A stretch of DNA of 64,000 nt. It comes from Leptospira biflexa (GTDB lineage: Bacteria > Spirochaetota > Leptospiria > Turneriellales > DYLW01). Position 1 is the stretch's first letter, and every line of letters begins with the position of its first letter. A model generated the notes under the pieces. That model ran no database searches. It was given only the letters and a program-made list of their open reading frames with translations, and had not been told where the DNA came from. This document shows, one piece after another, positions 7,915-57,436 of the stretch. The DNA lies in the NCBI GenBank assembly GCA_020720785.1, contig DYOA01000004.1, forward strand, positions 21,523 through 85,522. The letters are read 5' to 3'. The position numbers were made by a program, and so were the translations under genes.

Positions 7915-7915
7915 C

Positions 7916-13249: not shown

Positions 13250-15185
13250 AGTTCATTTTATCAGTCAGGAAGCTCTGTTTTCCAAAATGATATCGGTCTA
13301 TTTTTCCAGACGAGGCCTGGAATTTTCCAGTTCCCCATCCATCGATTCTTCCATGCCCGCCAGCGATTACCTGATGATTGACCTTCCGTATACCGAACCG
13401 GATCCGGGCGTAAAAAGTGAGCTACGCCGGATGAAGGAGAAGGGAATGGTAATCCTGTTTCTGGAGGATAAATACTCGCCGGAAAAAAGCCAGTTTTTTG
13501 CGGAATGCGGTGTTGTCAAAGAAAGAGATTTAAAGGTTCTTGATGATATTATCCTTATGATACAGGAAAATTCCACCCAACCCGCCCCTGCCGAACAGGA
13601 ACCGATGACCGAACCCGGTCCCGTGGAAAATGTGTCCCCATCTCCGGAAATAGTTTCTCCGCCGGAAACGGAGGAAAATCCGGAGCAGGATTCTCTCTCT
13701 CTCCAGGAAACCGATACCCCCCCAGCTTCTTTCTCCAGCCTGGGGATGGAGGCATCGGAAAATGTGGATATAAAAATCCTTATTGCCGATGATGCCAATG
13801 CAATACGCAACTTTGTGAAAAAAATTCTGGTTGCACACGGCTATGAAGTGGAAGCCTTTGAAAATGGACGGTTGCTGGTGGATTATATAGAGAACCATGG
13901 GCGGGGGGACTTGATTCTTCTGGATAACCAGATGCCAGTCATGGACGGAATAGAGACATTAAAATACTTAAAGAATAATAGAGAATTCCGGGAAATTCCC
14001 GTCCTTTTTCTTTCTGCCATTAAAGAGAAAGAAACCGTCGTTAAAGCCTTGGAAATGGGAGCAGATGACTACATGGAAAAACCGTTTCATAATAATGAAT
14101 TTTTGGCCCGCATCAAAGTACACGTCCGCATTGAGACATTGAAACGAAGCATTCTGGAAAAAAACCGCCTGATTGAATTGGAGAAAGAAAAAGCTGATAA
14201 ACTTCTGTTGAATACCCTGCCCAAAAAAATCGTGGAAGATTTAAAAAGGGAAGGGCGTACCTATCCGGAAACCTTTGATAACGTAACGGTCTATTTTTCC
14301 GATATAGCCGGCTTCACTGTCCAGTCCTCACGCCTTGAGCCTGCTTATCTTATCAATGAACTGAATGATATTTTTACCAATTTTGATAACATAATGGAGA
14401 AAAATTCCTGCGAACGGATAAAAACCATCGGAGATGCATATATGGCCGTCTGCGGTATGCCCATCCCCAACCAAAATCATGCGGAAAATATGCTCACTTC
14501 CTCCATTGAAATTATTGATTATTTGGAAAAGCGCAATCTGACTTCACAGGTCCAGTGGAAAATCCGGATTGGTATTCACACAGGAAGAGTGACTGGCGGG
14601 GTGGTGGGCATTAAAAAATATATTTACGATGTTTTTGGGGATACCATCAATACGGCATCCCGGATGGAATCCAATTCCGAACCCATGAGGATTAATATAT
14701 CCCCCACAACCTATGAACTTCTGAAAGATACGTTCCCTTTCATGGAAAGAGAAGCCAGAGAAGTAAAGGGCAAGGGTCTTATGAAAATGTATTTTTACGG
14801 GGAGCAACCGGATATGGAGATGACACTTATACGGGAAACCCCGGCAGAAACAACGCCGAAAGAAATCATTCCATCCAGCGGTCGTATCCGGGAGCCGGAA
14901 ATTATTCCTCCGATAAAGGCCATTTTATCGGAAGAAGATTATGGGATTTTATTCGCATATTATAAATCCAAAGAATTGGATAAAGCAATCGAAATTATAG
15001 AAGCCCATCCAGCAGAAGCTCAGGAGATGAAGACGCTGAAATTGTATGGCTGGATCTATTACGCATTAAAAGAATATTCTCTGGCTGCGGCAATCTGGGA
15101 AAGAGCTCTGGAAATAAATCCGGAGCAGCCAAAGCTGAAAAAAAACCTGGATACCCTGAAAGAATTTCTCCGGAAAATCGGATGA
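13242..15185 (+). CDS. pseudo-receiver / receiver / class III adenylate cyclase / TPR fusion protein
   Basis: The 647-aa ORF has REC 'ILIADDA...LILLDNQMPVMDG...DYMEKPF'. The cyclase core has 'VYFSDIAGFT', 'ERIKTIGDAYM' and 'YDVFGDTINTASRME'. A TPR-like C-terminus follows. It overlaps cheR by 8 nt. Confidence 0.9.
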   Translation: MSKVHFISQEALFSKMISVYFSRRGLEFSSSPSIDSSMPASDYLMIDLPYTEPDPGVKSELRRMKEKGMVILFLEDKYSPEKSQFFAECGVVKERDLKVLDDIILMIQENSTQPAPAEQEPMTEPGPVENVSPSPEIVSPPETEENPEQDSLSLQETDTPPASFSSLGMEASENVDIKILIADDANAIRNFVKKILVAHGYEVEAFENGRLLVDYIENHGRGDLILLDNQMPVMDGIETLKYLKNNREFREIPVLFLSAIKEKETVVKALEMGADDYMEKPFHNNEFLARIKVHVRIETLKRSILEKNRLIELEKEKADKLLLNTLPKKIVEDLKREGRTYPETFDNVTVYFSDIAGFTVQSSRLEPAYLINELNDIFTNFDNIMEKNSCERIKTIGDAYMAVCGMPIPNQNHAENMLTSSIEIIDYLEKRNLTSQVQWKIRIGIHTGRVTGGVVGIKKYIYDVFGDTINTASRMESNSEPMRINISPTTYELLKDTFPFMEREAREVKGKGLMKMYFYGEQPDMEMTLIRETPAETTPKEIIPSSGRIREPEIIPPIKAILSEEDYGILFAYYKSKELDKAIEIIEAHPAEAQEMKTLKLYGWIYYALKEYSLAAAIWERALEINPEQPKLKKNLDTLKEFLRKIG

Positions 15186-29731: not shown

Positions 29732-30370
29732 ATGAAACCATTTGAAAAAATCACATCCAATATTTGCCCACTGGACATGCCCAATATTGACACGGACCAG
29801 ATCATACCCAAGCAGTTTCTGAAGCGCATTGAGAGATCCGGTTTTGGCCAGTTCCTGTTCTATGACTGGAGATTCCGGAATGGAAATACGGAAAATACGG
29901 AATTCAATATGAACAAACCGGAGTATAAGGGAGCACAGATTCTTTTAACGGAAGATAATTTTGGATGCGGTTCCTCCCGTGAGCACGCACCCTGGGCATT
30001 GGAGGATTACGGCATTAAGGTTATTCTCTCCCCTTCCTTTGCGGATATATTTCATAATAACTGTTTCCAGAATGGAATTCTCCCCATCCGTCTGGATAAG
30101 GAAATCATCCTGAATCTTTTCAAGGCTGCCTTTGCCCATCCCATGGAAAAATATACCGTGGATCTGGAGAAAAATGAGATTCTCGTGGAAGGGGAAAATT
30201 CCCGGAAGATACTGGGGAATTCCATTTCCTTTTCGTTGGATCCGGGCAAAAAAGAAAAACTGCTCAAAGGTCTGGATGATATTGGATGGACCTTACAGTT
30301 CCTGTCAGAAATTGAAAAACATGAGAAGAGCAGGGTGACGTTTAGCGAAAGCCATCATCAGCGAACGTAA
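29732..30370 (+). CDS. leuD: 3-isopropylmalate dehydratase small subunit
   Basis: The 212-aa ORF has 'NIDTDQIIPKQFL' and 'NFGCGSSREHAPWAL' and follows leuC after 3 nt. Confidence 0.93.
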   Translation: MKPFEKITSNICPLDMPNIDTDQIIPKQFLKRIERSGFGQFLFYDWRFRNGNTENTEFNMNKPEYKGAQILLTEDNFGCGSSREHAPWALEDYGIKVILSPSFADIFHNNCFQNGILPIRLDKEIILNLFKAAFAHPMEKYTVDLEKNEILVEGENSRKILGNSISFSLDPGKKEKLLKGLDDIGWTLQFLSEIEKHEKSRVTFSESHHQRT

Positions 30371-31353
30371 GAATCGCCGTCTTTACGCAGAACAATCCGG
30401 TTTTCCGATTCCAGGTCGTGGATGGTATCCAAGACGGTATTTCTTGCAGTTTCCACTTCAGAGATGGGAATTCTGTCCAGACGGTCCATTTCATCGATGA
30501 TATCCGCAGATCGATTAATGGAAATACTGGAGAGAATATGGCGACGCAGCGTTTCTCCGGAACCCTTCAACGCTTTTGCCCATATTTCATAGGATGACAG
30601 TCTCTCCATCAATACGCGGACTTCTTTCTGCTCCAGATTGATAATATCCGCAAAAGTAAACAATTGGGAACGGATTCTTTCCGCCATGGAATCATCTTCT
30701 GTGCGAATGCTTTCCAGAATGGTTTCCTCTTTAGCGGAGTCCACATATTTCAGAATTTCCGCCAGCCGGTTTTCTCCATCAATTTCATAAAATTTATCTT
30801 CGGAAAAGGAGTCCAGCTTTTTCTTCAGAGACTGGTACACCGCATACAGGACTTCCGGAAGAACATCCGTGGACTTGGCAATACGGTAGGACACTTTCGC
30901 GGCATACTCCCTGTCAAATTCCTTGATGACGGCTGCCGCGAATGGGGGTTTTAACTGGGATAAAACGATTGCAGCCGTCTGGGGGAGCTCAGAGGAAAGA
31001 ATATGGGCAAGGTCTTCTGGAGGATAATCCGATAACTTTTTAAAGTAATCATGGACTTTGGACTTTTCTATCTTATCTATGTATTTCTGTGATTTTTCTT
31101 TTCCCAGGGTTTTTTCCAGCCAGGCAATGGCGGTGTCTTTACCGCCGGTGCTTTCCATCTGGGCTTTTCTCAGGGTATCCCGGAATTCCTTTAAAAGAGT
31201 TTCTTTTTCCTCGGCGTTTATGACAGAAATCTCAGCGATTTCCACTGCCAGCTTTTCAATGTATTTTTCATCCAGATGCTTGAGAATATTGGAAGCGTTT
31301 TCTTTCCCCAGGGCAAGTAGTAGTTTTGCTGCCTTCTGGCTGCCCTTTTCCAT
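30358..31353 (-). CDS. fliG: flagellar motor switch protein FliG (isolated paralogue)
   Basis: The 331-aa ORF has 'KAAKLLLALGKENASNILKHL', an EHPQ-like 'ELPQTAAIVLSQL', an MFxF-like 'QLFTFADI', and a C-terminal torque-helix region. Confidence 0.9.
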   Translation of the reverse strand: MEKGSQKAAKLLLALGKENASNILKHLDEKYIEKLAVEIAEISVINAEEKETLLKEFRDTLRKAQMESTGGKDTAIAWLEKTLGKEKSQKYIDKIEKSKVHDYFKKLSDYPPEDLAHILSSELPQTAAIVLSQLKPPFAAAVIKEFDREYAAKVSYRIAKSTDVLPEVLYAVYQSLKKKLDSFSEDKFYEIDGENRLAEILKYVDSAKEETILESIRTEDDSMAERIRSQLFTFADIINLEQKEVRVLMERLSSYEIWAKALKGSGETLRRHILSSISINRSADIIDEMDRLDRIPISEVETARNTVLDTIHDLESENRIVLRKDGDSYVR

Positions 31354-31361
31354 TCGTTATT

Positions 31362-31691
31362 TTAATTTTTCAATGCTTCTTCTTCTGTTTCATGGATTTC
31401 AAACATATCCATCAATTCCACCACTTCAAATATTTTTCTCACTGCGGGATTCAGATTGGAAAGCTTAAGGGATTTTCCGGCGGATTTGAGAACTCTCATG
31501 GTAGCAACCAGAACCCTGAGACCGCTGGAAGACATGTATTCCACATCCACCAAGTTGATGATCAGATTTTTGGACGGATTTTCATCCAGAATTTTATTGA
31601 TTTCTTTTTCCACATCTCCGCTGGCATGAACATCCAGTCTTCCCTTGAGATATACAACAATGTTATCGCCTGCTTCTTTTTTTGTTACCAT
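31362..31691 (-). CDS. STAS-domain anti-sigma-factor antagonist (SpoIIAA/RsbV-like)
   Basis: The 109-aa ORF has 'IINLVDVEYMSSSGLRVLV', which contains the conserved phosphorylatable Ser context (DSSGL-like). Confidence 0.88.
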   Translation of the reverse strand: MVTKKEAGDNIVVYLKGRLDVHASGDVEKEINKILDENPSKNLIINLVDVEYMSSSGLRVLVATMRVLKSAGKSLKLSNLNPAVRKIFEVVELMDMFEIHETEEEALKN

Positions 31692-31727
31692 ATGCCAATC
31701 ATATCACCTTTTATTGGGTGTAAACAT

Positions 31728-34046
31728 TTATTTGATGCGGATAATCATTAATGTGAAATCATCAAACTGTGGTTCGGTTCCGCAGAATTCCAGGACATCC
31801 GCATACACCTTTTCCGTAATGGTAGCGACGGAAACGTCCCGATTTTGATACAGAATATCCAGAAACCTGTCCATCCCGTATTCTTCGTTCTGGGGATTAA
31901 TACTTTCCACCACTCCGTCCGTGTACAGAACCAGGATGTCTCCGGATTCCATTCCAATACTCTTTTCCTCATAAACGTGTCCTTCCGAGGAAGGCAGAAT
32001 ACCCAGAGGCTTTCCTTTCGCACTCAGATACACCGGTTCGTTGCTACCGTTTTTCAGAAGTATCTGGCGGTTATGGCCGGCGGAAGAATAGGACAGAGTT
32101 TTGGCCGGTGCATCGTATGACGTCAGAAACATTGTGACAAACATACCGCCTTCACTGTTTTGGTAAATCAATTCATTGGCCATTTTCAAGATAAGGGATG
32201 GCAGCTTCTCTGTCTGGAACACCGTTCGGACGATGGAGCTGGCCAGTGCCATGAAAAGTGCTGCGGGAAGACTTTTTCCGGATACGTCGGCAATGGAGAA
32301 GTGCGAAGTTCCTTCCGGATTAATATTAAAGTCATAAAAATCACCGCCCATGGTTTTTGCGGGCTGGTAATAATGGGCCAAATCCAGAAGCGGGTTGTCC
32401 ACCTTTGTCCGGGGGAGAATGGCACGCTGGATATGGGAGGTTATCTGGAGTTCTTTTTCATAGGCCTTTTTCTCCAGCATTTCATTGACCATACTGTAGT
32501 TGGATATTGCCTGGGAAAGCTGGGTACTCAAGGTGATCAGAAGTCTCAGATTGCTTTTCTGGTAAGAATGCACGGAATCTTTTTTGGAGAGATTCACAAT
32601 CCCAAACGGTTTATCCCCCAGGCTCAGATAATAAATAATGCAATTCCCATTATTATAGCGATTGGCATCAAAAAAACGGGAGTATTTTGTGGAACGCAGA
32701 TCATTGGTAAAAAAGGATTTCCGGCTTTTGAAAACCTCCCCGGACAGATTATTATCCAGTTGTATTTCACTATGGAGTGCTTCCGCTGGTAATCCAAAAG
32801 CATAACGGATGATGAGTTTATCTTTTTTCTCATCATAGAGCAAAATCGAGATGGTAAAAGGATCAAACTGTTCGATGAGTAAATCCAGATAGGATTGCAA
32901 AATATTATCCACAGAGAAAGTTCGGGTGATCTGCTGGCTGAATTTATGCAGACCGGAAAGTTCGGAAATCCGTTTTTGTAAATTCCGGTTGGATACCTTC
33001 AAAGATTCAATCAAGTCCCGGTTGTGGATGGCGAGGGCGGCCTGTTCGGAAAAGGTGATAAACCTCTGGAGGTCTTTCTTTTTGAAGTTCATCCGCCCAA
33101 CGGTGTTGATTGCCTCCAGAACCCCAATCATTTCATTTTTTACCATCAGCGGTGTGGCAATCAGGTTTCTGGTTACGTAGTGACTGGCTTCGTCCACATT
33201 TTTAAAATGCCGGGAATCACTCTGGACATCATTGACAATTTCAGCTTTCCGGTTTAACGCTACCTCTCCGGCAATCCCTTTCCCAATGGGGATAGTCATC
33301 TTTTTCAACGCTTCGTCTTTTTCCCCGGATACCACAGAAAAAATCAGGTTCTCTTTCTTCTCATCCAGTAACATCAGACTGGAGCCTTCTGTTTTTAGTA
33401 CCATTTTACTGGATTCCATAATGGAACCCAGCAGATGATGAATATCGATGGAGGCATTAATCATCCGTGAAAGCTTGATAATTTCCGATACCATGGTGTC
33501 GTAATCCACCAATTCTTTCTGGCTGGAGAAAAAACGCTGGATCACCGGAAGAATCGCAGCCAGATCCATCACCAGTTGCGAGTCATCCGTATAATAGAGG
33601 TTACTCATAAAATCCCCGGTGACTTTAGCGGCAACCTGGACAATTTTACGGTCATTCAAGGTGAAATACCTTGAATCCAGTTTATCCCGGAACGTAATCT
33701 GACCAATTCGTTTTTTTCCGCCAAAAAGAGGATAAACCAGATAAGACCGGGGTGCTTTTTCCTCATTGTTTTCCAACCCAGGTTCATTTTCATTAATCTG
33801 CAGATAAGAGTCTTTTTTTTCTGATTCCCGGAAAACACATTTATCAAAATCATCCTGAACGTATGCAGGAAACAAAAATGATATGGGCTTTTCTTTTGTG
33901 TTAAGGCTTATTTTTATATTGGAAACTTTGATCAGATGAAAAAAAGTAGCTCCCAGTCTTTTCAGGAAATATCGGTTACTTTTTTTCAGCAGCACCCCTC
34001 TATGGATGCAGGCTTTCCCATTCTGGATAATGATTATCGGTTTCAT
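31728..34046 (-). CDS. tandem-GAF PP2C/SpoIIE-family serine phosphatase (RsbU-like)
   Basis: It has the PP2C core 'GGDFYDF...ADVSGKSLPAALFMA...YTDGVVES', preceded by two GAF-like blocks. The track ORF starts at a TTG at 34052. An ATG lies at 34046. Confidence 0.87.
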   Translation of the reverse strand: MKPIIIIQNGKACIHRGVLLKKSNRYFLKRLGATFFHLIKVSNIKISLNTKEKPISFLFPAYVQDDFDKCVFRESEKKDSYLQINENEPGLENNEEKAPRSYLVYPLFGGKKRIGQITFRDKLDSRYFTLNDRKIVQVAAKVTGDFMSNLYYTDDSQLVMDLAAILPVIQRFFSSQKELVDYDTMVSEIIKLSRMINASIDIHHLLGSIMESSKMVLKTEGSSLMLLDEKKENLIFSVVSGEKDEALKKMTIPIGKGIAGEVALNRKAEIVNDVQSDSRHFKNVDEASHYVTRNLIATPLMVKNEMIGVLEAINTVGRMNFKKKDLQRFITFSEQAALAIHNRDLIESLKVSNRNLQKRISELSGLHKFSQQITRTFSVDNILQSYLDLLIEQFDPFTISILLYDEKKDKLIIRYAFGLPAEALHSEIQLDNNLSGEVFKSRKSFFTNDLRSTKYSRFFDANRYNNGNCIIYYLSLGDKPFGIVNLSKKDSVHSYQKSNLRLLITLSTQLSQAISNYSMVNEMLEKKAYEKELQITSHIQRAILPRTKVDNPLLDLAHYYQPAKTMGGDFYDFNINPEGTSHFSIADVSGKSLPAALFMALASSIVRTVFQTEKLPSLILKMANELIYQNSEGGMFVTMFLTSYDAPAKTLSYSSAGHNRQILLKNGSNEPVYLSAKGKPLGILPSSEGHVYEEKSIGMESGDILVLYTDGVVESINPQNEEYGMDRFLDILYQNRDVSVATITEKVYADVLEFCGTEPQFDDFTLMIIRIK

Positions 34047-34054
34047 ATACAATG

Positions 34055-36166
34055 CTATCTGTTATTCAATCTTTGTTCAATAAATTTTCCGGTGGATTTA
34101 TCTTTCCGCATTTTGCCTTCCATATTTCCAAATTTTGTTTTCAATTTTTCCTCATAGGTTTTCACATGGGCTTCCTGCCGTATTATTTCCTTGTCCAGAG
34201 CCAGTATCCTGGTTTTATTGGCGTCAATCTGGGAAGAAATAATCCCACGGGTAAACTGGATATAGGGCTCCAAAAATTCATGGGAGGAAAACGCAAAACC
34301 GGAATCAATGACTCTGTCCGAATTGGAGTCCAGCCCGAAGAATTCTTTAACAGCAGTGGGATTTTCCATCACCATGGAGATCAATTTTCCTTCATCCAGA
34401 ATCAGATACCCTTGGGAGATGTTTTTCCACTCCGCTCCCACTTCTCCGGTTGTAATCCCGATAAAAGGAAGGGATTTAATGTAGGGTTCCCGGAGAGCGG
34501 GGTAGGAGTCTGCAACCCGGAATTTCAATCCATTGACCAGACTGCGGATGGCGGAATTGCCCACCAGAATACCGGATTCCTGTTTCATTTTATCATATTC
34601 TCCAACCGCTTTAATTTCCGATGTTTTTGTCAGCTCATGGGAAAGTTTCAATAATTCATTATACGCCTCGATAAACTCTTTTACCTGAGTGACAGAGTCA
34701 ACCGGATTTTTTGTGACTTTCACAAGTATTTCCTGGGGGGTGGGGGCAATCAGGTTTATGTTGGCACCCTTGATTAAATCTTCAATGGCCAGATTTCCTT
34801 TTCTTTCCACAGGAATTCCATCCAGTTCCAAGGAGGCATTGGAAGCTTCCTGGATAATATTCCTAAACTGTTCTTTCTGGCCGGCTATGTTTGGCTTCTC
34901 TTTATCTGTTTTTTCTGGTTCAGGGATTATTTCATAGACCCATTTGGCATTGAAGAAAGTAACATTCATATTCTGTGTATAGAAATCCATTTTCTTTATA
35001 TTTGCATCCACGGGAATTTGAATTAGCTTATCTTTTCCTTTCAGAGATATCTTCAATGGACCGTTCTGGAGACCCTCCGTTTTTTTCCCATCTTTGGAAT
35101 CTGGCTGCGGAGATGGAGTTGGGGGATTAGCGGCTCCGGAGGGGGATTCCGGAAAATGAAGGATAACCCCATAATCCTTTTCTTCTTCCCGGACTGTTTT
35201 ATGCTCTCTTTCTCTTTCAATGTTGTAGGTATGAATTTCATTTCCCTGGATATTCAACGTATCCACCGGTCCGTCTGCAATTTTATCCGGAGCGTTATCC
35301 TTTTCCTCCGGAGGGGTGGGGACCATGTCATGTTCCAGATTCAGGGCCTTCAATTTCTTTTTCTCCTGCACGGGTGGTGCCTGGTCAAATCTCCGGGCAG
35401 ATTCACCGGAGATGGTAAATCCTTTTTTATCTTCCCTTAATTGGAACGGCCCATCTTTTACCACGGAAAAATTTTCCAGCCCAAAGAGAATATCACTATA
35501 ATCTTCTTTCATTTCTCCTGAGCTTTTATCTTCCGGCTTTCCGTCCGGTTTATCTGTCCCGGCCAAACCTTTGATCAAACCGGCTTTTTTCAGAATCCCG
35601 TCCGGATCCTCCATCTTCAGGAGAGCTTCTTCTCCTTCTTTGACAGTCTCCGCAACCAAAAGAGCATTATCCGCATCCGGACGAATATATTTCACCGTTA
35701 AAAAATCAGAATAGTATTCATTGATAAAATCTGCCAGATTCTCCAGCTTTCCACCGGAAAATCGTTTTTCCCGTCCATTAATGGATATTTTCCCGGCAGG
35801 AAACACCTGGGACGTTTTCACCGCATCGGATTTGAAAACCAGCTTTTTGGCCAATTGGTGGATTTTTAAACGATATTCACCGGATGTGGCGTTTTTTGCG
35901 GAGGATCCGGATGCAAACCCTTCTTTGGAGAACTCCAGTTTTTTGGATTCAAAAGAGGCTTCAAATCCATATAGCTTTTTGAGTCTGTCCTGGAGTCTTT
36001 TTGTATATTTCCGTAATTCCTCCAGAGCGGCATTCTTTGCCCGTAGCTCTGCCTGTTCGCGTTCCATACGCCGCTGGGGAATGCGTTCAATGGCCACCAG
36101 ATCATTGATAACTTTCTGGGTATCCATTCCAGAGGGCGAATTGGGTATATAACTGGGTGCCGGCAT
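34055..36166 (-). CDS. fliD: flagellar filament capping protein FliD (hook-associated protein 2)
   Basis: The 703-aa ORF has N-terminal 'GMDTQKVINDLVAIERIPQ' and a C-terminal coiled coil 'IDANKTRILALDKEI...KFGNME', both typical of FliD. A Pro/Lys-rich insertion lies in the middle. Confidence 0.85.
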   Translation of the reverse strand: MPAPSYIPNSPSGMDTQKVINDLVAIERIPQRRMEREQAELRAKNAALEELRKYTKRLQDRLKKLYGFEASFESKKLEFSKEGFASGSSAKNATSGEYRLKIHQLAKKLVFKSDAVKTSQVFPAGKISINGREKRFSGGKLENLADFINEYYSDFLTVKYIRPDADNALLVAETVKEGEEALLKMEDPDGILKKAGLIKGLAGTDKPDGKPEDKSSGEMKEDYSDILFGLENFSVVKDGPFQLREDKKGFTISGESARRFDQAPPVQEKKKLKALNLEHDMVPTPPEEKDNAPDKIADGPVDTLNIQGNEIHTYNIEREREHKTVREEEKDYGVILHFPESPSGAANPPTPSPQPDSKDGKKTEGLQNGPLKISLKGKDKLIQIPVDANIKKMDFYTQNMNVTFFNAKWVYEIIPEPEKTDKEKPNIAGQKEQFRNIIQEASNASLELDGIPVERKGNLAIEDLIKGANINLIAPTPQEILVKVTKNPVDSVTQVKEFIEAYNELLKLSHELTKTSEIKAVGEYDKMKQESGILVGNSAIRSLVNGLKFRVADSYPALREPYIKSLPFIGITTGEVGAEWKNISQGYLILDEGKLISMVMENPTAVKEFFGLDSNSDRVIDSGFAFSSHEFLEPYIQFTRGIISSQIDANKTRILALDKEIIRQEAHVKTYEEKLKTKFGNMEGKMRKDKSTGKFIEQRLNNR

Positions 36167-36242: not shown

Positions 36243-36277
36243 ATATCGGCCAATGGGGAAAAACCAACAGAACTTTA
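36243..36277 (-). promoter_or_regulatory. sigma-28 (FliA)-type promoter candidate for fliD
   Basis: The minus strand reads TAAAGTTC (36277-36270), then 19 nt, then GCCGATAT (36250-36243). The -10 is an exact match to the Bacillus SigD consensus. The spacer is about 8 nt longer than canonical. It lies 77 nt upstream of the fliD ATG. Confidence 0.4.
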
Positions 36278-36280
36278 TCT

Positions 36281-36295
36281 ATTATGAGACATAAT
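36281..36295. promoter_or_regulatory. 15-bp perfect palindrome ATTATG-aga-CATAAT (operator-like)
   Basis: Read directly from the sequence. It abuts the -35-like element of the fliD promoter candidate in the fliD/secreted-protein divergent region. Confidence 0.35.
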
Positions 36296-36303
36296 CTCCC
36301 TTA

Positions 36304-36342
36304 TGTAAAGTGATTCTGTAAAGTAAATCTGTTAAGCGATTA
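36304..36342. repeat. three imperfect 13-bp tandem direct repeats (TGTAAAGTGATTC / TGTAAAGTAAATC / TGTTAAGCGATTA)
   Basis: Read directly from the sequence. The copies occupy 36304-36316, 36317-36329 and 36330-36342 within the divergent intergenic region. Confidence 0.7.
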
Positions 36343-36403: not shown

Positions 36404-36480
36404 AAAAAAACTTGCCGTTGTGCATAAAAACCCGGATTGGTATTTGCGTGACTTAAAAATTAACCTTGGAGAAAAAATTT

Positions 36481-38136
36481 ATGAAATCAGTTACAAAAGC
36501 ATTGTTTGTTCTACTGTTTTCCGTATCTGCTACGTTTGCCTTTGCTCCGGCAGACTATGCAGATAAGGACACAATTTTTTATGCAGAAATTGACAGCTAT
36601 TCCTCGTTGCTGAAAAAGACGCAGACATTTTACCTGAACCTCAGGAACCCCGCCGGAAAGAATGAATTGGAAATGGTCAAAACCGAGTTCAAACAGAATA
36701 TGGGAATTGACATCCTGGATGAAAAAGCCGTTGCCGCGTTTGGGGTGGATGTGACCCAACCCATCGCCGTGGGGGTTACTATGGCAGATCCCCAGATGCA
36801 GCAGGGAAAAGTGCACATTTGGATTCCTTCCGGTAATTCAGCTAGACTATACCAGAATGTTCTGAAAATGCTGGCAGCAAAAGACGCATCGGTGAGGCAA
36901 TACGATGAAGGTGCACAGGCTTCCTTCACAGAATTGAAATCCAATGAGCTCATAGAAATTGGCCAGGGCGAGGTTTTTATTGCCAGAGGAAGGGATTTTA
37001 TCTATATCACCACCGATCAGACAGCGGCAAACAATCCGTCCAAAGCAGGCGATTCCCTTGCCGGAACCGAGAAATACAAACTTCTGAAAGATCATTACGC
37101 TAAATCAGATAAAACGGGGATTTATCTCATTGACTATTCTCTGGTTACCACGGCGGCTTTGAGCCAGTATGCCCTGATGTACGGAGATGCGGGGAATGAA
37201 ATTGAAAAAGAATATCTGGAGGAAATTAAGGAAAATTTAATTTCCATTGGAGGAAAACTGGATATCCGTCCCAAAAGCTTTAACATCCAGTTTACTTATT
37301 TTTATAAAGAGGGCTATTTACAGGATATGACTAAAATGATGCCCAAACTGCTAAAAAATACTTCCAATCCAACCTCAATAGATTTTTTCAATGGAAATCC
37401 CATAGCATATTTTTCCCTCAAAATGAACCTTCCGGAGTTCTATAACGTTATGAAGGGAATGCAGCCCACCATCGCAACAAGCATCGCAGAAATGAACCAG
37501 GGATTTTCCGAGGATACTGGTCTGGACATTGAAACCGATGTGATCAACGGCTTCACCGGACGGGGATCGATGCTTCTGGTATCTCTGCCACCAGAAAAAC
37601 GCCTTCAGGATTTTAACGCCTGGAATGGGGCAATGGCAGTGGGAATCACACCAGGATCCGGGGATAAATTCAACAAAATAATCCTGGCCCTCCAGAAAAA
37701 AAATGATAACCCGAATATGACCATTAAATCCCAGAAGCTGGATAATGATGTTACTCTTTGGGCTTTTGTTACGAAAATGAATCCGGAATCAGAAGCCACA
37801 GAAGAAGCGTCACCCAAAAAATCGGCAAAGAAAAACACTGTGTATGTTTATGTTAAATCGGATGAAATAGTCATCGCTCCCAAAATGAACGCATGGATTA
37901 CCAAACCGGCAAGCAAAATTCATTTAATAAAAAAACTGGTAAAGGGAAATGAAAGCAATACTCCCGGAATTTTTTATGTGGATGTAAGCTCCGTTTCAAA
38001 ATACATGAAGACCACCTCTTATGGAATGATGATGGGCATGTATCTTGCTTATATCCAGAACGTGAAAGATGTTTACATGATATCATCCACAGAGGAAAAC
38101 ATCACAGTTTCTGATTTCATGATCAGACTTAAATGA
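36481..38136 (+). CDS. hypothetical secreted protein (signal peptide)
   Basis: The N-terminus is 'MKSVTKALFVLLFSVSATFAFAP'. GGAG lies 9 nt upstream of the ATG at 36481. The track ORF starts at a TTG at 36466. This is the first gene of a five-gene coupled operon. Confidence 0.65.
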   Translation: MKSVTKALFVLLFSVSATFAFAPADYADKDTIFYAEIDSYSSLLKKTQTFYLNLRNPAGKNELEMVKTEFKQNMGIDILDEKAVAAFGVDVTQPIAVGVTMADPQMQQGKVHIWIPSGNSARLYQNVLKMLAAKDASVRQYDEGAQASFTELKSNELIEIGQGEVFIARGRDFIYITTDQTAANNPSKAGDSLAGTEKYKLLKDHYAKSDKTGIYLIDYSLVTTAALSQYALMYGDAGNEIEKEYLEEIKENLISIGGKLDIRPKSFNIQFTYFYKEGYLQDMTKMMPKLLKNTSNPTSIDFFNGNPIAYFSLKMNLPEFYNVMKGMQPTIATSIAEMNQGFSEDTGLDIETDVINGFTGRGSMLLVSLPPEKRLQDFNAWNGAMAVGITPGSGDKFNKIILALQKKNDNPNMTIKSQKLDNDVTLWAFVTKMNPESEATEEASPKKSAKKNTVYVYVKSDEIVIAPKMNAWITKPASKIHLIKKLVKGNESNTPGIFYVDVSSVSKYMKTTSYGMMMGMYLAYIQNVKDVYMISSTEENITVSDFMIRLK

Positions 38137-40118
38137 GCCCGGATTCCCCTGAAACTGACCTCCAGAAAGATGTTAACTCAATAAGGTTAAAAATTTTTCT
38201 GGAGGTTTTTCAGGAGGAATATGGTCATAATATACTTTCAGAAGATATTGAAAATTTTTCCTCACAATATAAAAAACTCCTGCGTGATATTAAAGATGCA
38301 AAATGGATCCAATCAGAAACCGAGCTGTCCATTATCTCTTATTTTTGCAATAAATTTAATAATTGGGAAATAATCCGTAAAGTGGGGAAAGACTGTCTCT
38401 CTACTGCCTTTGAGTATCTCCTCCCTGCCCTCCCCCCCCGGATCACAAATACGGAAATTATCTACAGAATTCCCAATGCACTTTCCCTTTTCCTGACATA
38501 CATCAATATCAGAATAGAAAAAAAGGAAACGGATGTGTACTGGATTTATTTAAACCATACAAATCCGCAAGGCTGGAACCCGGCGGATATATATTTTCTG
38601 GAAGGTGTTGTAACCCGCCTGTTTGAATCCCTGAAAAGCGGACCAATTCTCTTAAAAATGGAAAAATGCCCTGAAACGGTGATCCCATATCTGGTTAAAG
38701 GGGATATCATAAATTCGGAAAACCCCGCAGAATGTGCTCTGAGGTTATCCATACCTCCGGATAGCCAGGCCGGTCCTTCGGATAATCATGCCTTCAGCAC
38801 CTATGATGCCTATATTTCATCGGTCCTGAACCGCTCTTCCCAGCTTTTGCAGGATAAAAAAGAGCTTCTGACCGCCGTGGAATATCTCCAACTGGCCAAT
38901 GACAAACTGGAGAATGAGTTGATTTCCAACAAAAAAGAACTCCAGATGGCACGCAGTATCCAGAAAGGGTTTGTCCCCAAACGTATTCCAGACTGGAAAG
39001 GGCTTCAATTCTGGATTAAATTCTATCCCCTTCAGGAAGTGAGCGGAGATTTTTATGATTACATCCAACATGAAGGCGATAAAATCGGGATTCTGGTCGC
39101 GGATGTTTCCGGGCATGGAGTGCCGGCAGCCCTGATCAGTGCAATCGCCAAACTTTCCTTTCAGAATCATGTCTTATCCTCCCCGTCCGAAGTATTTTCC
39201 AAAGTCAACCTGGACATCCTGCGATATGTGAAACGGGAGGGTTATATTACCGGCACCTATTTTATTGTGGATAATCATTATAACATTACGTATAGCCTGG
39301 CAGGTTCGCCACGTCCCTTTTTATACCGGAAAAAATCGGATGAGGTGATCCGGTTGCCTGGTAGCGGTACCATTCTGGGAATGTTTCCGGATGCCAATGA
39401 GCTTTACATGGACCAGCGGACGCACATGGAACCGGGAGACAAACTTTTTTTATTCACAGATGGCCTGGTGGAAGCCATTAATTCCCAGAATGAAATCATG
39501 GGGGACGAGAAACTCATTGAGTATATCCAGGAAACATCCGGAATGGACATCCAGGACACTTCCAACCACATCATGAAAAGGTACCATGAATACCTTCTGG
39601 GCTCCGAACCCCATGACGATCTGACATTTCTTACAATCATGGCCAGTGAACGAATCGGGGAATTTGATCAATTAATGAAAGAAACCAGAGAATTTATCCG
39701 GAAAAAGGATTATGAAAAAACGATCCATTCCCTGCGGGAAGCGGTGGCTATTTTTCCCCAGAATGCGTCCACACTTTTCCTCCTGGGGAAGTTCCTTGTT
39801 TTATTCGGCAAGCACGATGAAGCAATGAAAATTCTGACCGAGTATAATTATCTCCAACCCTATAATGCGGACGCATATACCCTTCTGGCACAATGCCATT
39901 ACAAACAGGAAAACTACCGGATGGCCCTGGATGACATAAAAAGATCTCTGAGCCTGAGATCAGATAATCCCAACGCCATGTATCTGATGGTAAAAATCTA
40001 TTCTGCCCTGGGTGACCATAACTCCGCTTTCACCACTTTTACTGCTCTGGAGTTTTTAAAGCCGGGCCATAGAAAAATACTTGAACTAAGAGAAAAATTT
40101 TTCGAAGAGAGTCCATGA
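38133..40118 (+). CDS. PP2C/SpoIIE-family serine phosphatase with C-terminal TPR domain
   Basis: It has 'SGDFYDYIQ...ADVSGHGVPAALISA...FTDGLVEA...PHDDLTFL' followed by TPR-like repeats. An ATGA overlap joins it to the upstream gene. Confidence 0.88.
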   Translation: MSPDSPETDLQKDVNSIRLKIFLEVFQEEYGHNILSEDIENFSSQYKKLLRDIKDAKWIQSETELSIISYFCNKFNNWEIIRKVGKDCLSTAFEYLLPALPPRITNTEIIYRIPNALSLFLTYINIRIEKKETDVYWIYLNHTNPQGWNPADIYFLEGVVTRLFESLKSGPILLKMEKCPETVIPYLVKGDIINSENPAECALRLSIPPDSQAGPSDNHAFSTYDAYISSVLNRSSQLLQDKKELLTAVEYLQLANDKLENELISNKKELQMARSIQKGFVPKRIPDWKGLQFWIKFYPLQEVSGDFYDYIQHEGDKIGILVADVSGHGVPAALISAIAKLSFQNHVLSSPSEVFSKVNLDILRYVKREGYITGTYFIVDNHYNITYSLAGSPRPFLYRKKSDEVIRLPGSGTILGMFPDANELYMDQRTHMEPGDKLFLFTDGLVEAINSQNEIMGDEKLIEYIQETSGMDIQDTSNHIMKRYHEYLLGSEPHDDLTFLTIMASERIGEFDQLMKETREFIRKKDYEKTIHSLREAVAIFPQNASTLFLLGKFLVLFGKHDEAMKILTEYNYLQPYNADAYTLLAQCHYKQENYRMALDDIKRSLSLRSDNPNAMYLMVKIYSALGDHNSAFTTFTALEFLKPGHRKILELREKFFEESP

Positions 40119-40966
40119 AAGAATTTATTATTCAGCTTTTCTCCGGACGGAATTCCACTTTTATGCAGGTCCTGTATTCCATTTTAATAATCATGGTCTT
40201 TCTTTTGATGGGGAAAATAATTAATAGAATTTTCCTGAAAAGAATCAACGGCGTTTTATACCGTATTTTATGGAAGAGAATTTTATCCTATTTTCTGTTT
40301 ATCCTTCTCCTTTTGTTTCTGATTCCCTATTGGCTGCCCTCCCTCCGGACATTTTCTGCCTTTCTGGGGTTAATCGGCACTGGTATTCTTCTGGTGAACA
40401 AGGAAATCATCATGAATATGACCGGATGGATGTATATTGTCATCCGCCAACCGTTTAAAATAGCCAATAGAATCCAGATTGGGGAATTTAACGGAGATGT
40501 CATCGATATCCGTATACTGGAAACAACCATTATGGAAGCCCGCAAAAGAGAAAAGGGCGGGAATTCCACGGGAAGGGTTCTGCATATCCCCAATATGCTT
40601 TTTTTAACCATGCCGATGGCAAATTCCAGCAAAGAATTTATGTTTAACTGGAATGAGCTGGAAATCCATCTCAATCCGGATTCCAACTGGAAAAAAGCTA
40701 AAAATATTCTGCAGAAAATTGCCGATAATCACATTGAAAAACTATCCATGACATCAAATAAATTAAAGAATTTTCACAGTGAATATGCCATGTTCCTGGA
40801 TAATGTCCGTTCTGAAATATATGTGGAGATGCGTGAAGATCATATTGTTTTAATTCTCCGTTATCTCATTGAACCCCGCAATGCGGGAAAAATAAACAGC
40901 TATCTTTGGGAGAATATACTCGATAGCTTTCATGGTCACAAAGACATTATATTTTACAGGAAATAA
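40115..40966 (+). CDS. small-conductance mechanosensitive channel (MscS family)
   Basis: The 283-aa ORF has 3 TM segments followed by 'FKIANRIQIGEFNGDVIDIRILETTIME...GRVLHIPN', which matches the MscS beta-domain pattern. An ATGA overlap joins it to the upstream gene. Confidence 0.85.
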   Translation: MKEFIIQLFSGRNSTFMQVLYSILIIMVFLLMGKIINRIFLKRINGVLYRILWKRILSYFLFILLLLFLIPYWLPSLRTFSAFLGLIGTGILLVNKEIIMNMTGWMYIVIRQPFKIANRIQIGEFNGDVIDIRILETTIMEARKREKGGNSTGRVLHIPNMLFLTMPMANSSKEFMFNWNELEIHLNPDSNWKKAKNILQKIADNHIEKLSMTSNKLKNFHSEYAMFLDNVRSEIYVEMREDHIVLILRYLIEPRNAGKINSYLWENILDSFHGHKDIIFYRK

Positions 40967-40968
40967 TC

Positions 40969-42954
40969 ATGAATAAATTAAAGAAAATGCTCCTGTCCAT
41001 GGAACTGGAAGAAGAAATGCGGGAAGATTCTGACGATGAAGTTATTATTCTCAGTGATAATCTTCAGGAAGCACTGGAAGTGGGCTCCAAGGAATTAAAT
41101 ACGGATATCGCTGGCCTGGACTATGAAATAATGGAGAAAGGGCATCCCGGCATTTTTGGATGGGGTAGAATTCCCTATAAAATCCATATCCGTCGAATGG
41201 TAGAAGACAACCGCTGGAAAGATCTGGATGATCTCCATGTTTCGCTGGATTACGGTTCGTCCTCCGGCTCTTACGATGAAAACGCAAAGATAGCCATTAA
41301 TGGTGATGCAAAAATACGGATTTATAAACAGGGAGTATTTCTAAAAATCCTCAACCCACGGGGTGACGGCAAAAAAATTCCGGTGGAAAGAGTCATGGAA
41401 AAAATCATCCGTGCCGGTGTTCTTAACTATGAAAAGAGCATTGTGGAAAAGGAAGTTAAACACCCTTCTGAAAATTATATCAAAATCGGGCCTTGGGTTC
41501 CCAAACCGGAGGCAGATTCCACTCTGGCGGTGGAAGTTTCACCGGATGAGATGAAAGCATTTATTACCATATCCTCTCCCCGCCCGGGGGGCAAACATTT
41601 GACATTTAAGGACATAAAAGCAGCCCTGAACGCCTCCAATGTGGTGGATGAAATTATGGAAGAGGATATTGAGGATGCTCTGGAGAATGAAAAATATTCC
41701 CAAACCATTGTGGCGGCATCCGGTATCCGTCCCCAGAATGGCTCCGATGGTTTTATTGATTATAAGGTGAGGATTGATAAAACCATTGAATTCAAGGAAG
41801 ATGAGAGAACCGGAAAGGTGGACTTCCTGAAAAAAGATCTGGTGGAAAATGTGGTTCAGGGACAGATTCTGGCTGAACTCATGCCGGCGGAAAAAGGTGT
41901 GGAGGGACATACCGTCACAGGAAAAATTATGCCAGCCAAAGACGGTGCCCCCACTACGCTGAAGCCAGGAAAAGGAACTCTGGTTTCCGAGGACGGTAAA
42001 ACCCTCCAGGCCGAGATCAACGGACAGGTGGTATTCATTGCCGGAAAGATCAATGTGGAAGAAGTGTACACCGTGGGCGGAGACGTGGGTCTGGAAACCG
42101 GAAATCTCATGTTCATCGGCTCCATTAATATCCGGGGCAGCGTGGATGACAATATGAATGTGAAAGCCGCCGGAAATATCACCGTGGGCGGTAACGTCCA
42201 GAAATCCCTGATTGAAGCGGAAGGCGATATTATTGTCAAACAGGGTATTCTGGGAAGAGACGGAGCCCATATTGAATCCACATCAGGCTCTTTGTTTGCA
42301 AAATTTATCCAGAACGCCACCATCAGCGTGGATAAAGATGTTGTCGTGGAAGAAGCAATTATGCACTCCAAAATTGACGCAGGCAGGAAGGTCATTGCAA
42401 ACGGAAGGAGAGCCCAGATTGTGGGGGGAGAAGTCATGGTGGGGGAAGAAATCCGGGTAAAACAATTAGGGGCACAGGCTTCCACTCCAACCATGATAGT
42501 GGTGGGAACCAATCCCAAAATACTCCAGCAGATAAATTCCTTGAGCGAAATTGAAAAAGACGCTGTCACCAAATTACAAAAAGTGGAAAAAAACATTAAA
42601 ACCCTTTACCAGCAAAAGGAAACCCAACCGGAGACATTCAATTCAGAAAAAGAGGAGATCCTGGCAAAGCAGCTTTCTTTCCAGGATACCATCACGGAAA
42701 GAGTCCAGGATGTCCAGAATGAGAAACTGCAGCTTTCTGAATATCTGGAAGTCCTTTCTGCCGGAGGAAAGGTGCATGTGGAAAAAACCCTATTTCCCGG
42801 TGTCACCATTGAAATCAACGGAGCCAAGTTTGAGGTAAAAGATGAATACAACCATGTTACCCTGATGGAAGAAAATGGAAATATCAAAATTGTTCCTTAC
42901 CAGGAAGACGCAAATGAAGTAAAAGACTGGAGAAAATCAAGGAGGAAGAGATGA
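40969..42954 (+). CDS. fapA: flagellar assembly protein A (FapA, DUF342 family)
   Basis: The 661-aa ORF has repetitive beta-helix-like segments ('GDVGLETGNLMFIGSINIRGSVDDNMNVKAAGNITVGGNV') and a C-terminal coiled coil, typical of DUF342/FapA. Confidence 0.82.
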   Translation: MNKLKKMLLSMELEEEMREDSDDEVIILSDNLQEALEVGSKELNTDIAGLDYEIMEKGHPGIFGWGRIPYKIHIRRMVEDNRWKDLDDLHVSLDYGSSSGSYDENAKIAINGDAKIRIYKQGVFLKILNPRGDGKKIPVERVMEKIIRAGVLNYEKSIVEKEVKHPSENYIKIGPWVPKPEADSTLAVEVSPDEMKAFITISSPRPGGKHLTFKDIKAALNASNVVDEIMEEDIEDALENEKYSQTIVAASGIRPQNGSDGFIDYKVRIDKTIEFKEDERTGKVDFLKKDLVENVVQGQILAELMPAEKGVEGHTVTGKIMPAKDGAPTTLKPGKGTLVSEDGKTLQAEINGQVVFIAGKINVEEVYTVGGDVGLETGNLMFIGSINIRGSVDDNMNVKAAGNITVGGNVQKSLIEAEGDIIVKQGILGRDGAHIESTSGSLFAKFIQNATISVDKDVVVEEAIMHSKIDAGRKVIANGRRAQIVGGEVMVGEEIRVKQLGAQASTPTMIVVGTNPKILQQINSLSEIEKDAVTKLQKVEKNIKTLYQQKETQPETFNSEKEEILAKQLSFQDTITERVQDVQNEKLQLSEYLEVLSAGGKVHVEKTLFPGVTIEINGAKFEVKDEYNHVTLMEENGNIKIVPYQEDANEVKDWRKSRRKR

Positions 42955-57409: not shown

Positions 57410-57436
57410 AAACCGGCCTCGTGCCGGTTTTTTTTA
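57410..57436. terminator. bidirectional rho-independent terminator between convergent ferredoxin and cNMP-binding genes
   Basis: The stem ACCGGC (57413-57418) pairs with GCCGGT (57424-57429) around a 5-nt loop. It is flanked by AAA on the 5' side and T7 on the 3' side. Confidence 0.7.

Follow-up and report, generated by a model that had tools for sequence, protein, structure and literature searches.

A partner-switching module linked to a divergent FliG paralogue in Leptospirales

A spirochaetal gene array that lies behind fliD encodes what we read as a partner-switching module (PSM) that is dedicated to a divergent paralogue of FliG, and not to a sigma factor, as its output; we give this reading even odds (a probability of about 0.5). 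The domain composition of the encoded proteins, their intact catalytic and phospho-acceptor residues, the linkage of the genes across related loci and the distinctness of the FliG family are established here and are described below, followed by a model for how such a module may act and by the other explanations for the same data.

Results

Gene array and encoded proteins

The window, meaning the whole 64-kb stretch of DNA analysed, comes from an uncultured Leptospira-like spirochaete. Its minus strand carries fliD and genes for a GAF-GAF-PP2C phosphatase, a STAS protein and FliG in that order, separated by gaps of 8, 36 and 8 nt, and both the open reading frames (ORFs) and the gaps match exactly those given in the initial annotation. 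The Pfam domains expected of these proteins (GAF, SpoIIE, STAS, FliG_N/M/C and FliD_N/C) were all detected where they were expected.

34055-36166, minus strand: fliD (filament cap), 703 aa; ORF; Pfam FliD_N 1.8e-19, FliD_C 8.7e-43; NCBIfam NF005188, 304 bits
31728-34046, minus strand: GAF-GAF-PP2C sensor phosphatase (RsbU-like), 772 aa from ATG; ORF; Pfam
31362-31691, minus strand: single-domain STAS protein (RsbV/SpoIIAA-like anti-sigma antagonist type), 109 aa; ORF; Pfam
30358-31353, minus strand: divergent full-length FliG, 331 aa; ORF; Pfam FliG_N/M/C

The phosphatase has an alternative TTG start at 34052, and fliG and the convergent leuD overlap by 13 nt at the 3' end of fliG. A degenerate GAF-like region at the N-terminus of the phosphatase precedes GAF-A, GAF-B and the PP2C/SpoIIE domain (Pfam GAF 203-344, GAF 380-516 and SpoIIE 579-773, the last at 5.4e-47). 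The conserved metal-binding Asp motifs of PPM/PP2C phosphatases are present, with GGDFYDF, ADVSGKS, YTDG and DDFTL kept in all 15 aligned orthologues. Orthologues of the phosphatase are 38-94% identical. Some relatives of this phosphatase in Leptospirales carry a fused HATPase_c_2 domain, with GAF rather than REC domains.

The single-domain STAS protein (Pfam STAS 8.4e-22) scores 82.4 bits on NCBIfam TIGR00377 against a cut-off of 53.45. Its Ser55, which lies in the phospho-Ser context YMSSSGLRVL that had been noted previously, aligns with the phospho-acceptor Ser58 of SpoIIAA (1AUZ), the position of RsbV Ser56, and EYMSSSGLR is found in 86 of 87 STAS homologues scanned, including those of the clade that lacks a kinase gene. 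Within the window's clade, STAS identity is 94-99%; between the window and one clade member, L002, the STAS proteins are 94% identical while the PP2C and FliG proteins are only about 63% identical. The STAS protein is also 59-72% identical to homologues in about 65 loci without an adjacent FliG, indicating that the main constraint on its sequence is not the FliG paralogue. STAS orthologues were found in many non-flagellar contexts.

A tblastn search with orthologous kinases gave no match to an RsbW-type kinase anywhere in the 64-kb window, so the window lacks the HATPase_c_2 kinase expected of a PSM; the gap between the PP2C and STAS genes is 36 nt. The operon has no room for a sigma factor or FlgM gene either, which bears out the initial annotation on all three absences. 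Likewise, no sigma factor gene, and thus no linked cognate partner of the usual kind, was found either within the operon or in the flanks annotated for four loci (L001, L002, L003 and L006).

A distinct FliG family

The window FliG is a full-length protein (Pfam FliG_N 8.6e-34, FliG_M 1.2e-22 and FliG_C 2.6e-23) that aligns end to end with the solved FliGs 8Z4D, 3HJL and 8UMD, and it is similar over its N domain to the FliF-binding domain of 5TDY (E 9.7e-17). Its score on TIGR00207, 209.3 bits, falls ~17 bits short of the NCBIfam equivalog cut-off of 226.7, and the Turneriella orthologue scores 92.2 bits. Profile scores separate the divergent family (348-445 bits) from canonical FliGs (at most 239 bits), and the family carries the signatures WA[KR]ALKG and S[IM]NR[SA]xD. 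On these sequence criteria, we assign the window FliG to a distinct divergent family.

Functional motifs vary within this family. At the FliM-binding motif EHPQR, the window protein has ELPQ followed by Arg, and other members have ESDQ, EYSQ, ETAA or ENPN. Among the residues that contact the stator (E. coli K264, R281, D288, D289 and R297), the window protein keeps K, R, D and E and has Pro at R297. Copies from the Turneriella branch lack both acidic residues of the torque helix, EHPQ and a recognisable FliG_N domain.

While the canonical FliGs used for comparison sit between fliF and fliH, the neighbours of the window gene are the STAS gene and convergent leuD, in agreement with the earlier observation that this fliG lies outside a fliF-fliG-fliH cluster. 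Multiple FliG genes have been described in spirochaetes, with three copies in L. interrogans (PMC11800159) and two in B. burgdorferi (PMC7225975). The TIGR00207 score, the distinct family and the three-copy precedent of L. interrogans make it likely that the window FliG is a second paralogue in its own genome.

Linkage of the module to FliG across related loci

We compared 23 distinct loci from Turneriella-like and other Leptospirales genomes. A FliG paralogue lies immediately downstream of PSM genes on the same strand in 23/23, and in each of the 22 loci for which the contig extends far enough upstream, PP2C accompanies the FliG paralogue. The arrangement kinase-STAS-FliG is found in 18 of the 23 loci (PP2C is visible in 17 of the 18), the kinase-less PP2C-STAS-FliG in three (the window, L002 and L007) and the STAS-less PP2C-kinase-FliG in two, both metagenomic. 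Intergenic distances within these cassettes typically run from a 4-nt overlap to about 25 nt, and the cassette is present in metagenome-assembled genomes (MAGs) labelled Turneriella.

Twenty orthologous cassettes contain an RsbW-type HATPase_c_2 gene, either between PP2C and STAS or directly before FliG, which argues that the missing kinase gene of the window's clade is a derived, lineage-specific loss. The kinase-less operon described in the initial annotation is therefore true of the window but not ancestral. Similarly, the four-gene order fliD-PP2C-STAS-fliG is kept in L002 and L007, the two loci that make up a clade with the window; fliD heads the operon in this clade alone, and elsewhere it is absent and the upstream neighbour varies. 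By this comparison, the conserved unit is PP2C, RsbW-type kinase, STAS and FliG rather than fliD to fliG; in the window's clade the kinase has been lost, and fliD, together with its promoter, has been added upstream.

The genes outside this unit change. Upstream, the neighbour is fliD, a 2400-2550-aa Tricorn/TPR protein, RelA/SpoT, or a PBP with a thioesterase, and downstream it is leuD-leuC or acylphosphatase-KdtA-ClpP-ClpX-Lon. The linkage nevertheless persists through complete turnover of the outer neighbours and through divergence of FliG down to 24-27% identity. A search seeded with the FliG family signature alone, and thus blind to neighbours, returned five loci, with PSM genes directly upstream in all five. 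Taken together, these data uphold the physical tie between the phosphatase/STAS pair and an isolated divergent FliG, and the tie is conserved far beyond chance, although shared vertical inheritance within one order could inflate its significance.

In relatives of the Leptonemataceae type, the position behind the same GAF-PP2C-kinase and STAS core is taken not by FliG but by an unrelated protein of ~800 aa (c2), consistent with a modular build in which a switch core is joined to an output gene. One further related locus, L051, carries PP2C-kinase-STAS but has no FliG or c2 behind it.

Promoter region of the window operon

Three elements were identified upstream of fliD.

36243-36250, minus strand: sigma-28 (FliA)-type -10 box GCCGATAT, 76 nt upstream of the fliD ATG
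36270-36277, minus strand: -35-like TAAAGTTC; spacer to the -10 box 19 nt, not 11 nt
36281-36324, minus strand: conserved upstream block with two ACTTTACA repeats and a sigma-70-like promoter candidate, TTTACA-17-CATAAT (10/12 matches in the promoter scan)

The box GCCGATAT conforms to the -10 element GCCGATAA/T of sigma-28 promoters. Its count is unremarkable alone (5 matches in the window versus 3.96 expected); CCGATATAG is invariant in both orthologous upstream regions, those of L002 and L007, in one of which the spacer has otherwise diverged. A sigma-28 -35 element, TAAA(GTTT), is absent at consensus spacing, since TAAAGTTC sits 19 rather than 11 nt away, and no counterpart of TAAAGTTC was found upstream of fliD in L002. 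The repeat ACTTTACA occurs just twice in the whole window, both times within 36281-36324, and the block ACTTTACATAAGGRAGATTATGTCWCATAA recurs upstream of fliD in L002 and L007. Two more GCCGATAA boxes in the window lie ahead of motility genes (the che operon and FapA), which makes use of sigma-28 by the organism probable. The sigma-28-type box proposed to precede the array is thus present and kept in L002 and L007, but none was found ahead of the cassette in other lineages, and we assign it to the promoter of fliD rather than to the cassette generally.

Discussion

A model for the module

In our model, the ancestral cassette would have comprised a GAF-gated, RsbU-like PP2C phosphatase, an RsbW-type serine kinase, an RsbV-like STAS protein and a FliG paralogue. 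A small ligand on the GAF domains would set phosphatase activity and thereby the phosphorylation state of STAS Ser55, and this state would decide whether the FliG paralogue is free for the flagellar motor or held by the STAS protein or the kinase. Once freed, the paralogue might serve as an alternative rotor subunit or compete for stator or C-ring contacts. The cassette of the window's clade has come to lie behind fliD, and hence behind a sigma-28-type late flagellar promoter, so that the switch would be made only while flagella are being completed, and a kinase encoded elsewhere would presumably phosphorylate its STAS protein. We infer the protein-protein contacts of this model from gene order; what binds the GAF domains, which way regulation runs and how the motor responds are likewise predictions.

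The most specific form of the model makes the FliG paralogue itself the switched partner: an RsbW-type protein or the STAS protein would act as an anti-FliG that sequesters it and the GAF-gated phosphatase would release it, yielding a signal-dependent rotor subunit or stator decoy that alters torque or rotational bias. We regard this form as possible and advance it tentatively, judging it on the whole unlikely. Some cassettes lack STAS and others the kinase, which makes it impossible to single out one PSM protein as the one that touches FliG and obliges the model to call on paralogues acting in trans. The resemblance of the STAS protein to homologues in loci without an adjacent FliG, and locus L051 with its module that neither FliG nor c2 follows, also count against the model.

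Alternative explanations

The FliG paralogue could instead be mere co-expressed cargo of a motility operon in which unphosphorylated STAS, by binding FlgM or a different anti-sigma factor, governs the late flagellar genes that depend on FliA. Such a route has a precedent in P. aeruginosa, where PA3346/PA3347 act on FlgM (PMC8256260), and the position of the window cassette in the fliD operon, behind a conserved sigma-28-type -10 box in an organism whose che and FapA genes follow similar boxes, would create a feedback loop. However, the association with fliD and sigma-28 is confined to 3 of the 23 loci, and no cassette contains flgM or fliA. Nothing in these data supports the earlier suggestion that FlgM could be the target. 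FlgM is a poorly conserved, disordered protein, and it could hardly account for how little STAS varies across orders. Control of FlgM would also leave unexplained why FliG, and FliG alone, always follows the module, and we consider this route improbable. We hold it equally improbable that the RsbW-type kinase is an ordinary anti-sigma factor for an unlinked stress or developmental sigma factor, with FliG adjacent by inherited accident or for co-expression. Leptospirales carry many PSM paralogues, among which cross-talk is possible, the kinase does match RsbW models, if weakly (40 bits on NF003144 versus a cut-off of 145), and the STAS protein is a bona fide TIGR00377 member with orthologues in non-flagellar settings. 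Against this, the four annotated cassettes have no sigma gene in or near them, the adjacency of FliG has outlasted neighbour turnover, loss of the kinase or STAS and divergence to 24% FliG identity, and every locus found through FliG carried the module.

It is slightly less probable still that the window FliG is a functional rotor protein, possibly one of several interchangeable copies, and that the PSM regulates something else, such as a partner common to all STAS orthologues. The full length of the protein, its match to the FliF-binding domain, its equivalents of K264, R281 and D288/D289 and its near-threshold TIGR00207 score would all fit a working rotor subunit. By cassette position and family signatures, however, it is orthologous to the Turneriella copies that lack a recognisable FliG_N, EHPQ and the acidic torque residues; it does not adjoin fliF or fliH, and extra FliG copies have precedents in L. 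interrogans and B. burgdorferi.

Relation to known systems

A PSM with a FliG paralogue as its output would resemble the RsbU-RsbV-RsbW and SpoIIE-SpoIIAA-SpoIIAB systems of Bacillus in its PP2C/SpoIIE phosphatase with intact metal motifs, its Ser55 at the SpoIIAA Ser58 position and the RsbW-type kinase of 20 orthologous cassettes. It differs from them in that the window lacks the kinase gene, the sensor is a tandem GAF and the order is U-W-V-X rather than V-W-sigma, with the FliG paralogue in the place of the sigma factor gene. In SypE-SypA of Vibrio fischeri and SiaA/B/C-SiaD of P. aeruginosa, a non-transcriptional effector is likewise controlled by whether a small STAS-type protein is phosphorylated; their effectors have biofilm or diguanylate-cyclase functions, whereas the candidate effector here is FliG-like. 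The HsbR (PA3346)-HsbA (PA3347)-FlgM system of Pseudomonas aeruginosa is also a PSM tied to flagellar function, and binding of FlgM by PA3347/HsbA establishes a non-sigma output for STAS proteins (PMC8256260). The fused kinase domain of HsbR is shared by some Leptospirales relatives of the window phosphatase, which itself has only GAF-GAF-SpoIIE in place of the receiver-PP2C-kinase arrangement and takes its input through GAF domains rather than through a receiver fed by HptB. No FlgM is linked here; the flagellar gene that is linked codes for a rotor-type protein, pointing to the motor rather than transcription as the level of control.

Like the window gene, second FliG copies of spirochaetes, such as FliG1 beside FliG2 in B. 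burgdorferi, are encoded outside fliF-fliG-fliH; linkage to a PSM is undescribed for FliG1 and for the Leptospira copies. Borrelia FliG1 is not needed for flagellar assembly and has an asymmetric localisation (PMC7225975). The brakes and clutches YcgR, MotI and EpsE, which act on FliG or MotA, also provide signal-dependent post-translational control at the rotor-stator interface (PMC11800159), but these are c-di-GMP receptors or a glycosyltransferase that bind canonical FliG, while here the regulated object would itself be FliG-like and controlled through a phosphatase/STAS switch. Our literature search found no report of a FliG-like effector of a PSM and no published description of the PSM-FliG architecture, as the initial annotation had also stated.

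Implications

PSMs are known mainly as sigma factor regulators, with few other outputs, and a module dedicated to a rotor-type flagellar protein would, if true, mean that the mechanism can also control the motor directly. The role of the extra FliG copies of spirochaetes is largely unknown, and a conserved signal-gated switch beside one of them provides concrete, testable candidates. The natural variants without kinase or without STAS offer ready genetic contrasts, and Turneriella, the genus whose label is borne by some of the MAGs with the cassette, has a cultured species, which may carry it too. It is an open question how spirochaetes set their two polar motors to turn asymmetrically (PMC7225975), and a FliG paralogue that is itself the switched partner would be one possible route to their unlike behaviour. 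The recurrence of the PSM-FliG pairing in 23 loci suggests that the flagellar motor is regulated in a way that has not been described before.

A phosphatase and a STAS protein are encoded between fliD and fliG

The initial annotation placed fliD, PP2C, STAS and fliG in tight minus-strand order, and the junction sequences bore this out, with gaps of 8, 36 and 8 nt. Pfam upheld every domain call made for FliD, the GAF-GAF-PP2C protein, the STAS protein and FliG. The window corresponds to contig CDCNAG010000017.1 of the MAG GCA_974337035.1.

Table. The array and features of its surroundings
30358-31353 (-): fliG, 331 aa; FliG_N, FliG_M and FliG_C
31362-31691 (-): STAS gene, 109 aa; STAS, 8.4e-22
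31728-34046 (-): GAF-GAF-PP2C gene, 772 aa from ATG, with a TTG two codons further 5'; two GAF regions and SpoIIE, 5.4e-47
34055-36166 (-): fliD, 703 aa; FliD_N and FliD_C
36243-36250 (-): sigma-28-type -10 box GCCGATAT, 76 nt 5' of the fliD ATG
38133-40118 (+): second SpoIIE phosphatase, with TPR repeats (Pfam), in the operon divergent from fliD
40969-42954 (+): homologue of FapA (flagellar assembly protein A) that carries a Jag_N domain; GCCGATAA box at 40721-40728

No promoter-like or terminator-like match fell within the intergenic gaps of the array in a scan whose overall counts were at chance level, and the convergent leuD overlaps the 3' end of fliG by 13 nt.

The PP2C and STAS proteins correspond to the RsbU-like phosphatase and the RsbV-like component of a partner-switching module, the third component of which is an RsbW-type HATPase_c_2 kinase. 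The metal-binding motifs of the phosphatase are kept in 15/15 aligned orthologues, including those of the kinase-less clade formed by the window and the related loci L002 and L007. The phospho-Ser context recognized earlier in the STAS protein (YMSSSGLRVL) was found, and its Ser55 lines up with Ser58, the phospho-acceptor in SpoIIAA. The window STAS protein and 87 homologues, from several families and three unrelated gene contexts, share 59-99% identity, the figure across all three contexts being 59-72%. Their long invariant blocks are EYMSSSGLR, present in 86 of the 87 homologues scanned, and A-V-[KR]-K-I-F-E-V-V-E-L-M-D-M-F. Between the window and L002, STAS is 94% identical, compared with about 63% for PP2C and FliG. 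This conservation is unusually strong for an RsbV-type protein.

The operon had been described as lacking an RsbW-type kinase, and since tblastn detected none across the entire 64-kb window either, the kinase loss is derived; continued phosphorylation of Ser55 would require a kinase acting in trans. There was likewise no match within the 64-kb window to c2, a ~800-aa non-FliG protein encoded 3' of the module genes in other loci.

An NKFDE-type cyclic-nucleotide motif in GAF-A matched only partially, and its Glu is not conserved, so we make no ligand claim for this domain. Elsewhere in the window, a GAF and HD_5 (HD-GYP-like) protein (651-2636, minus strand), a 211-aa cNMP-binding protein (57434-58069, minus strand) and a REC-adenylate/guanylate cyclase (13242-15185, plus strand) suggest rich cyclic-nucleotide signalling in the organism. 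The cyclase belongs to a chemotaxis operon (~4311-15185, plus strand, with a GCCGATAA box ahead) that also encodes an MCP with CZB, a PAS-MCP, a 1003-aa CheA-CheW-REC hybrid, CheW, CheB and CheR.

The cassette in related genomes

PP2C orthologues were found in Turneriella-like and other Leptospirales MAGs. Conservation of the four-gene order held within the window's clade, as fliD-PP2C-STAS-fliG-leuDC in L002 (63% PP2C identity) and fliD-PP2C-STAS-FliG in L007, but elsewhere fliD was missing and a kinase gene was present. A Turneriella MAG (L003) carried PP2C, a 141-aa HATPase_c_2 kinase, STAS and FliG without fliD, and a third lineage (L006) carried PP2C, kinase, STAS, FliG and leuDC. With the STAS alignment as seed, a scan that covered a single genome of each species yielded 80 loci, which were classed by tblastn and neighbour-ORF clustering.

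Table. Locus types in the STAS-seeded scan
Full cassette: PP2C-kinase-STAS-FliG; 12 loci
Kinase-less: fliD-PP2C-STAS-FliG; L007
Leptonemataceae type: TPR/Mrr, fused PP2C-kinase, STAS, unrelated ~800-aa c2; 8 loci
Different cluster: TPR/Mrr, cNMP-binding 604 aa, 148 aa, STAS, c2, TPR/Mrr, ParB_N-like; about 58 loci

At locus L051, PP2C-kinase-STAS was followed by neither FliG nor c2. Profile comparison ruled out c2 as a FliG-like protein (hhalign probability 0.2%), as well as c3 as PP2C-like and c4 as kinase-like (<2% each).

A seven-gene cluster recurs in many Spirochaetota MAGs (L028:6202-15130 and about 55 other loci, L011-L086) in the order TPR+Mrr_cat (~450 aa), cNMP-binding + P-loop (~604 aa), 148 aa, STAS, c2 (~750 aa), TPR+Mrr_cat (~520 aa) and ParB_N-like (~310 aa). 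Its c2 had no Pfam or NCBIfam match, and we found no published account of this TPR/Mrr-STAS-c2 cluster. In other STAS contexts, loose linkage of FliG or FapA to STAS was confined to L054 and L059, not a general feature. At L059:3-2640, a C-terminal FliG fragment clusters with the paralogue family, sharing its NNR-x-x-D torque-helix variant but lacking the inserted Trp. A gene for a FapA-like protein of 584 aa comes after it, 9 kb 5' of an other-type STAS cluster, and the locus edge cuts the genes upstream of the fragment.

Since the STAS-seeded scan was biased by its own seed, we separately scanned metagenome contigs for FliG, using an 8-sequence alignment and a pattern based solely on the signature of the FliG family, [IVL]WA[RKA]ALKGx[GD]; a 15-sequence FliG alignment was too divergent as a seed. 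Module genes lay directly 5' of FliG in 5/5 loci. Three carried kinase-STAS-FliG, with PP2C also visible in two (the L103 contig ends at the kinase), and two carried GAF-GAF-PP2C, kinase and FliG without any STAS gene (L101:2950-6993 and L102:3177-6975), the kinase stop overlapping the FliG start by 4 nt in L101. These STAS-less loci imply either direct action of the kinase on FliG or a STAS provided in trans.

The full cassette was also present on a 4.84-Mb Turneriella-like contig, ctg28255 of ERZ26867466 (L095). The 23 distinct loci comprised 18 with kinase-STAS-FliG (PP2C visible in 17), the three kinase-less members of the window's clade and the two STAS-less loci, and PP2C accompanied the FliG paralogue in 22/22 loci with the upstream end on the contig. 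The neighbours of the cassette differ both upstream (fliD, RelA/SpoT, a PBP plus a thioesterase, or a giant Tricorn/TPR protein of 2400-2550 aa) and downstream (leuDC or acylphosphatase-KdtA-ClpP-ClpX-Lon). In all Turneriella-type loci (L003:337-7998, L053:1-7200 and L095:1-2811), the giant, with Tricorn_N, PD40 and TPR matches, stops 2 nt 5' of PP2C and is probably co-transcribed with the cassette.

A candidate sigma-28 promoter ahead of fliD

The sigma-28-type -10 box reported before the array is present, but the octamer alone is not significant, with 5 matches in the window compared with 3.96 expected. It gains credibility from the invariance of CCGATATAG 5' of fliD both in L007, where the proteins are 91-99% identical, and in L002, where they are 55-94% identical and the remaining spacer has diverged; from a second GCCGATAA box in L002 that adjoins the start codon; and from two further window boxes that precede motility genes on the right strand, namely the chemotaxis operon at 4341-15185 (23 nt) and the FapA gene (240 nt). 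A -35-like TAAAGTTC is present, although its spacer to the -10 box is 19 nt, not 11 nt.

Just 5' of the -10 box, a conserved block ACTTTACATAAGGRAGATTATGTCWCATAA common to the window, L002 and L007 holds a sigma-70-like promoter candidate (TTTACA-17-CATAAT) and the window's only two copies of ACTTTACA (repeat stretch 36304-36324, minus strand). Repeats containing ACTTTACA also occur at L007:5216-5300 (at least five tandem copies beside an N run) and L002:5600-5650 (one and a half), and could be where a regulator binds or be -35 elements that have been duplicated. No sigma-28 boxes were found ahead of the cassette in the related loci L006, L008, L009 and L010. The fliD/sigma-28 linkage is an addition specific to the window's clade, and it would make expression of the switch coincide with late flagellar assembly.

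The operon divergent from fliD (36466-42954, plus strand) codes for a secreted protein of 556 aa that matched no family, the SpoIIE-TPR phosphatase, an MscS-like channel protein and FapA.

The FliG paralogue as a candidate output

The window FliG aligned over its full length with FliGs of known structure, its N domain matching the 5TDY FliF-binding domain, and scored 209.3 bits against TIGR00207 (cut-off 226.7); the match of the Turneriella orthologue was limited to the M and C domains and scored 92 bits. Alignment with canonical FliGs revealed two family signatures: WA[KR]ALKG, which contains an inserted Trp, and S[IM]NR[SA]xD, which replaces MS[KQ]RAAE. Residues equivalent to E. coli K264 and R281 are kept in the family alignment, those equivalent to D288/D289 are kept in the window's branch and lost in Turneriella, and the R297 position is Pro in the window FliG. 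The EHPQ motif is degenerate (the window FliG has ELPQ, other members ESDQ, ETAA or ENPN). A family profile gave members 348-445 bits compared with 239 bits or less for all other FliGs, and no named Leptospirales canonical FliG was among its protein-search matches. Canonical FliGs looked up in samples unrelated to the window (P0145, P0136 and P0125) were flanked by fliF and fliH. L. interrogans reportedly has three FliG genes (PMC11800159), and two, FliG1 and FliG2, are present in B. burgdorferi (PMC7225975). The window FliG is likely a second paralogue in its own genome.

The best-supported reading, to which we give a probability of about 0.5, is that the locus encodes a partner-switching module with the FliG paralogue as its dedicated output. 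This reading is favored because the gene after the switch core differs by lineage (FliG paralogue or c2), as in an output slot, because the FliG slot survives neighbour turnover and loss of the kinase or STAS, and because no sigma factor is linked. A sigma factor encoded elsewhere could instead be the target, but we regard this as unlikely. An HsbA-like action of STAS on FlgM has a precedent (PMC8256260) and would sit with the sigma-28-type box of the window's clade, a box with no counterpart before the cassette in L006, L008, L009 or L010; we hold it to be just as improbable. An ordinary rotor role for the window FliG, with which its full-length alignment and retained K264 and R281 equivalents agree and its location away from fliF and fliH does not, appears slightly more doubtful still.

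If the FliG paralogue is the dedicated output, the kinase-less variant points to STAS as its probable contact and the STAS-less variant to the kinase. The extreme conservation of STAS in FliG-free contexts argues that the main constraint on STAS may lie elsewhere than FliG. The suggestion that no described system has such an architecture stood up to a full-text literature search, which found none linking FliG to STAS or partner switching. The parts are familiar but the output is new, and a FliG-linked switch is relevant to the additional FliG copies that spirochaetes carry, which are still little understood.
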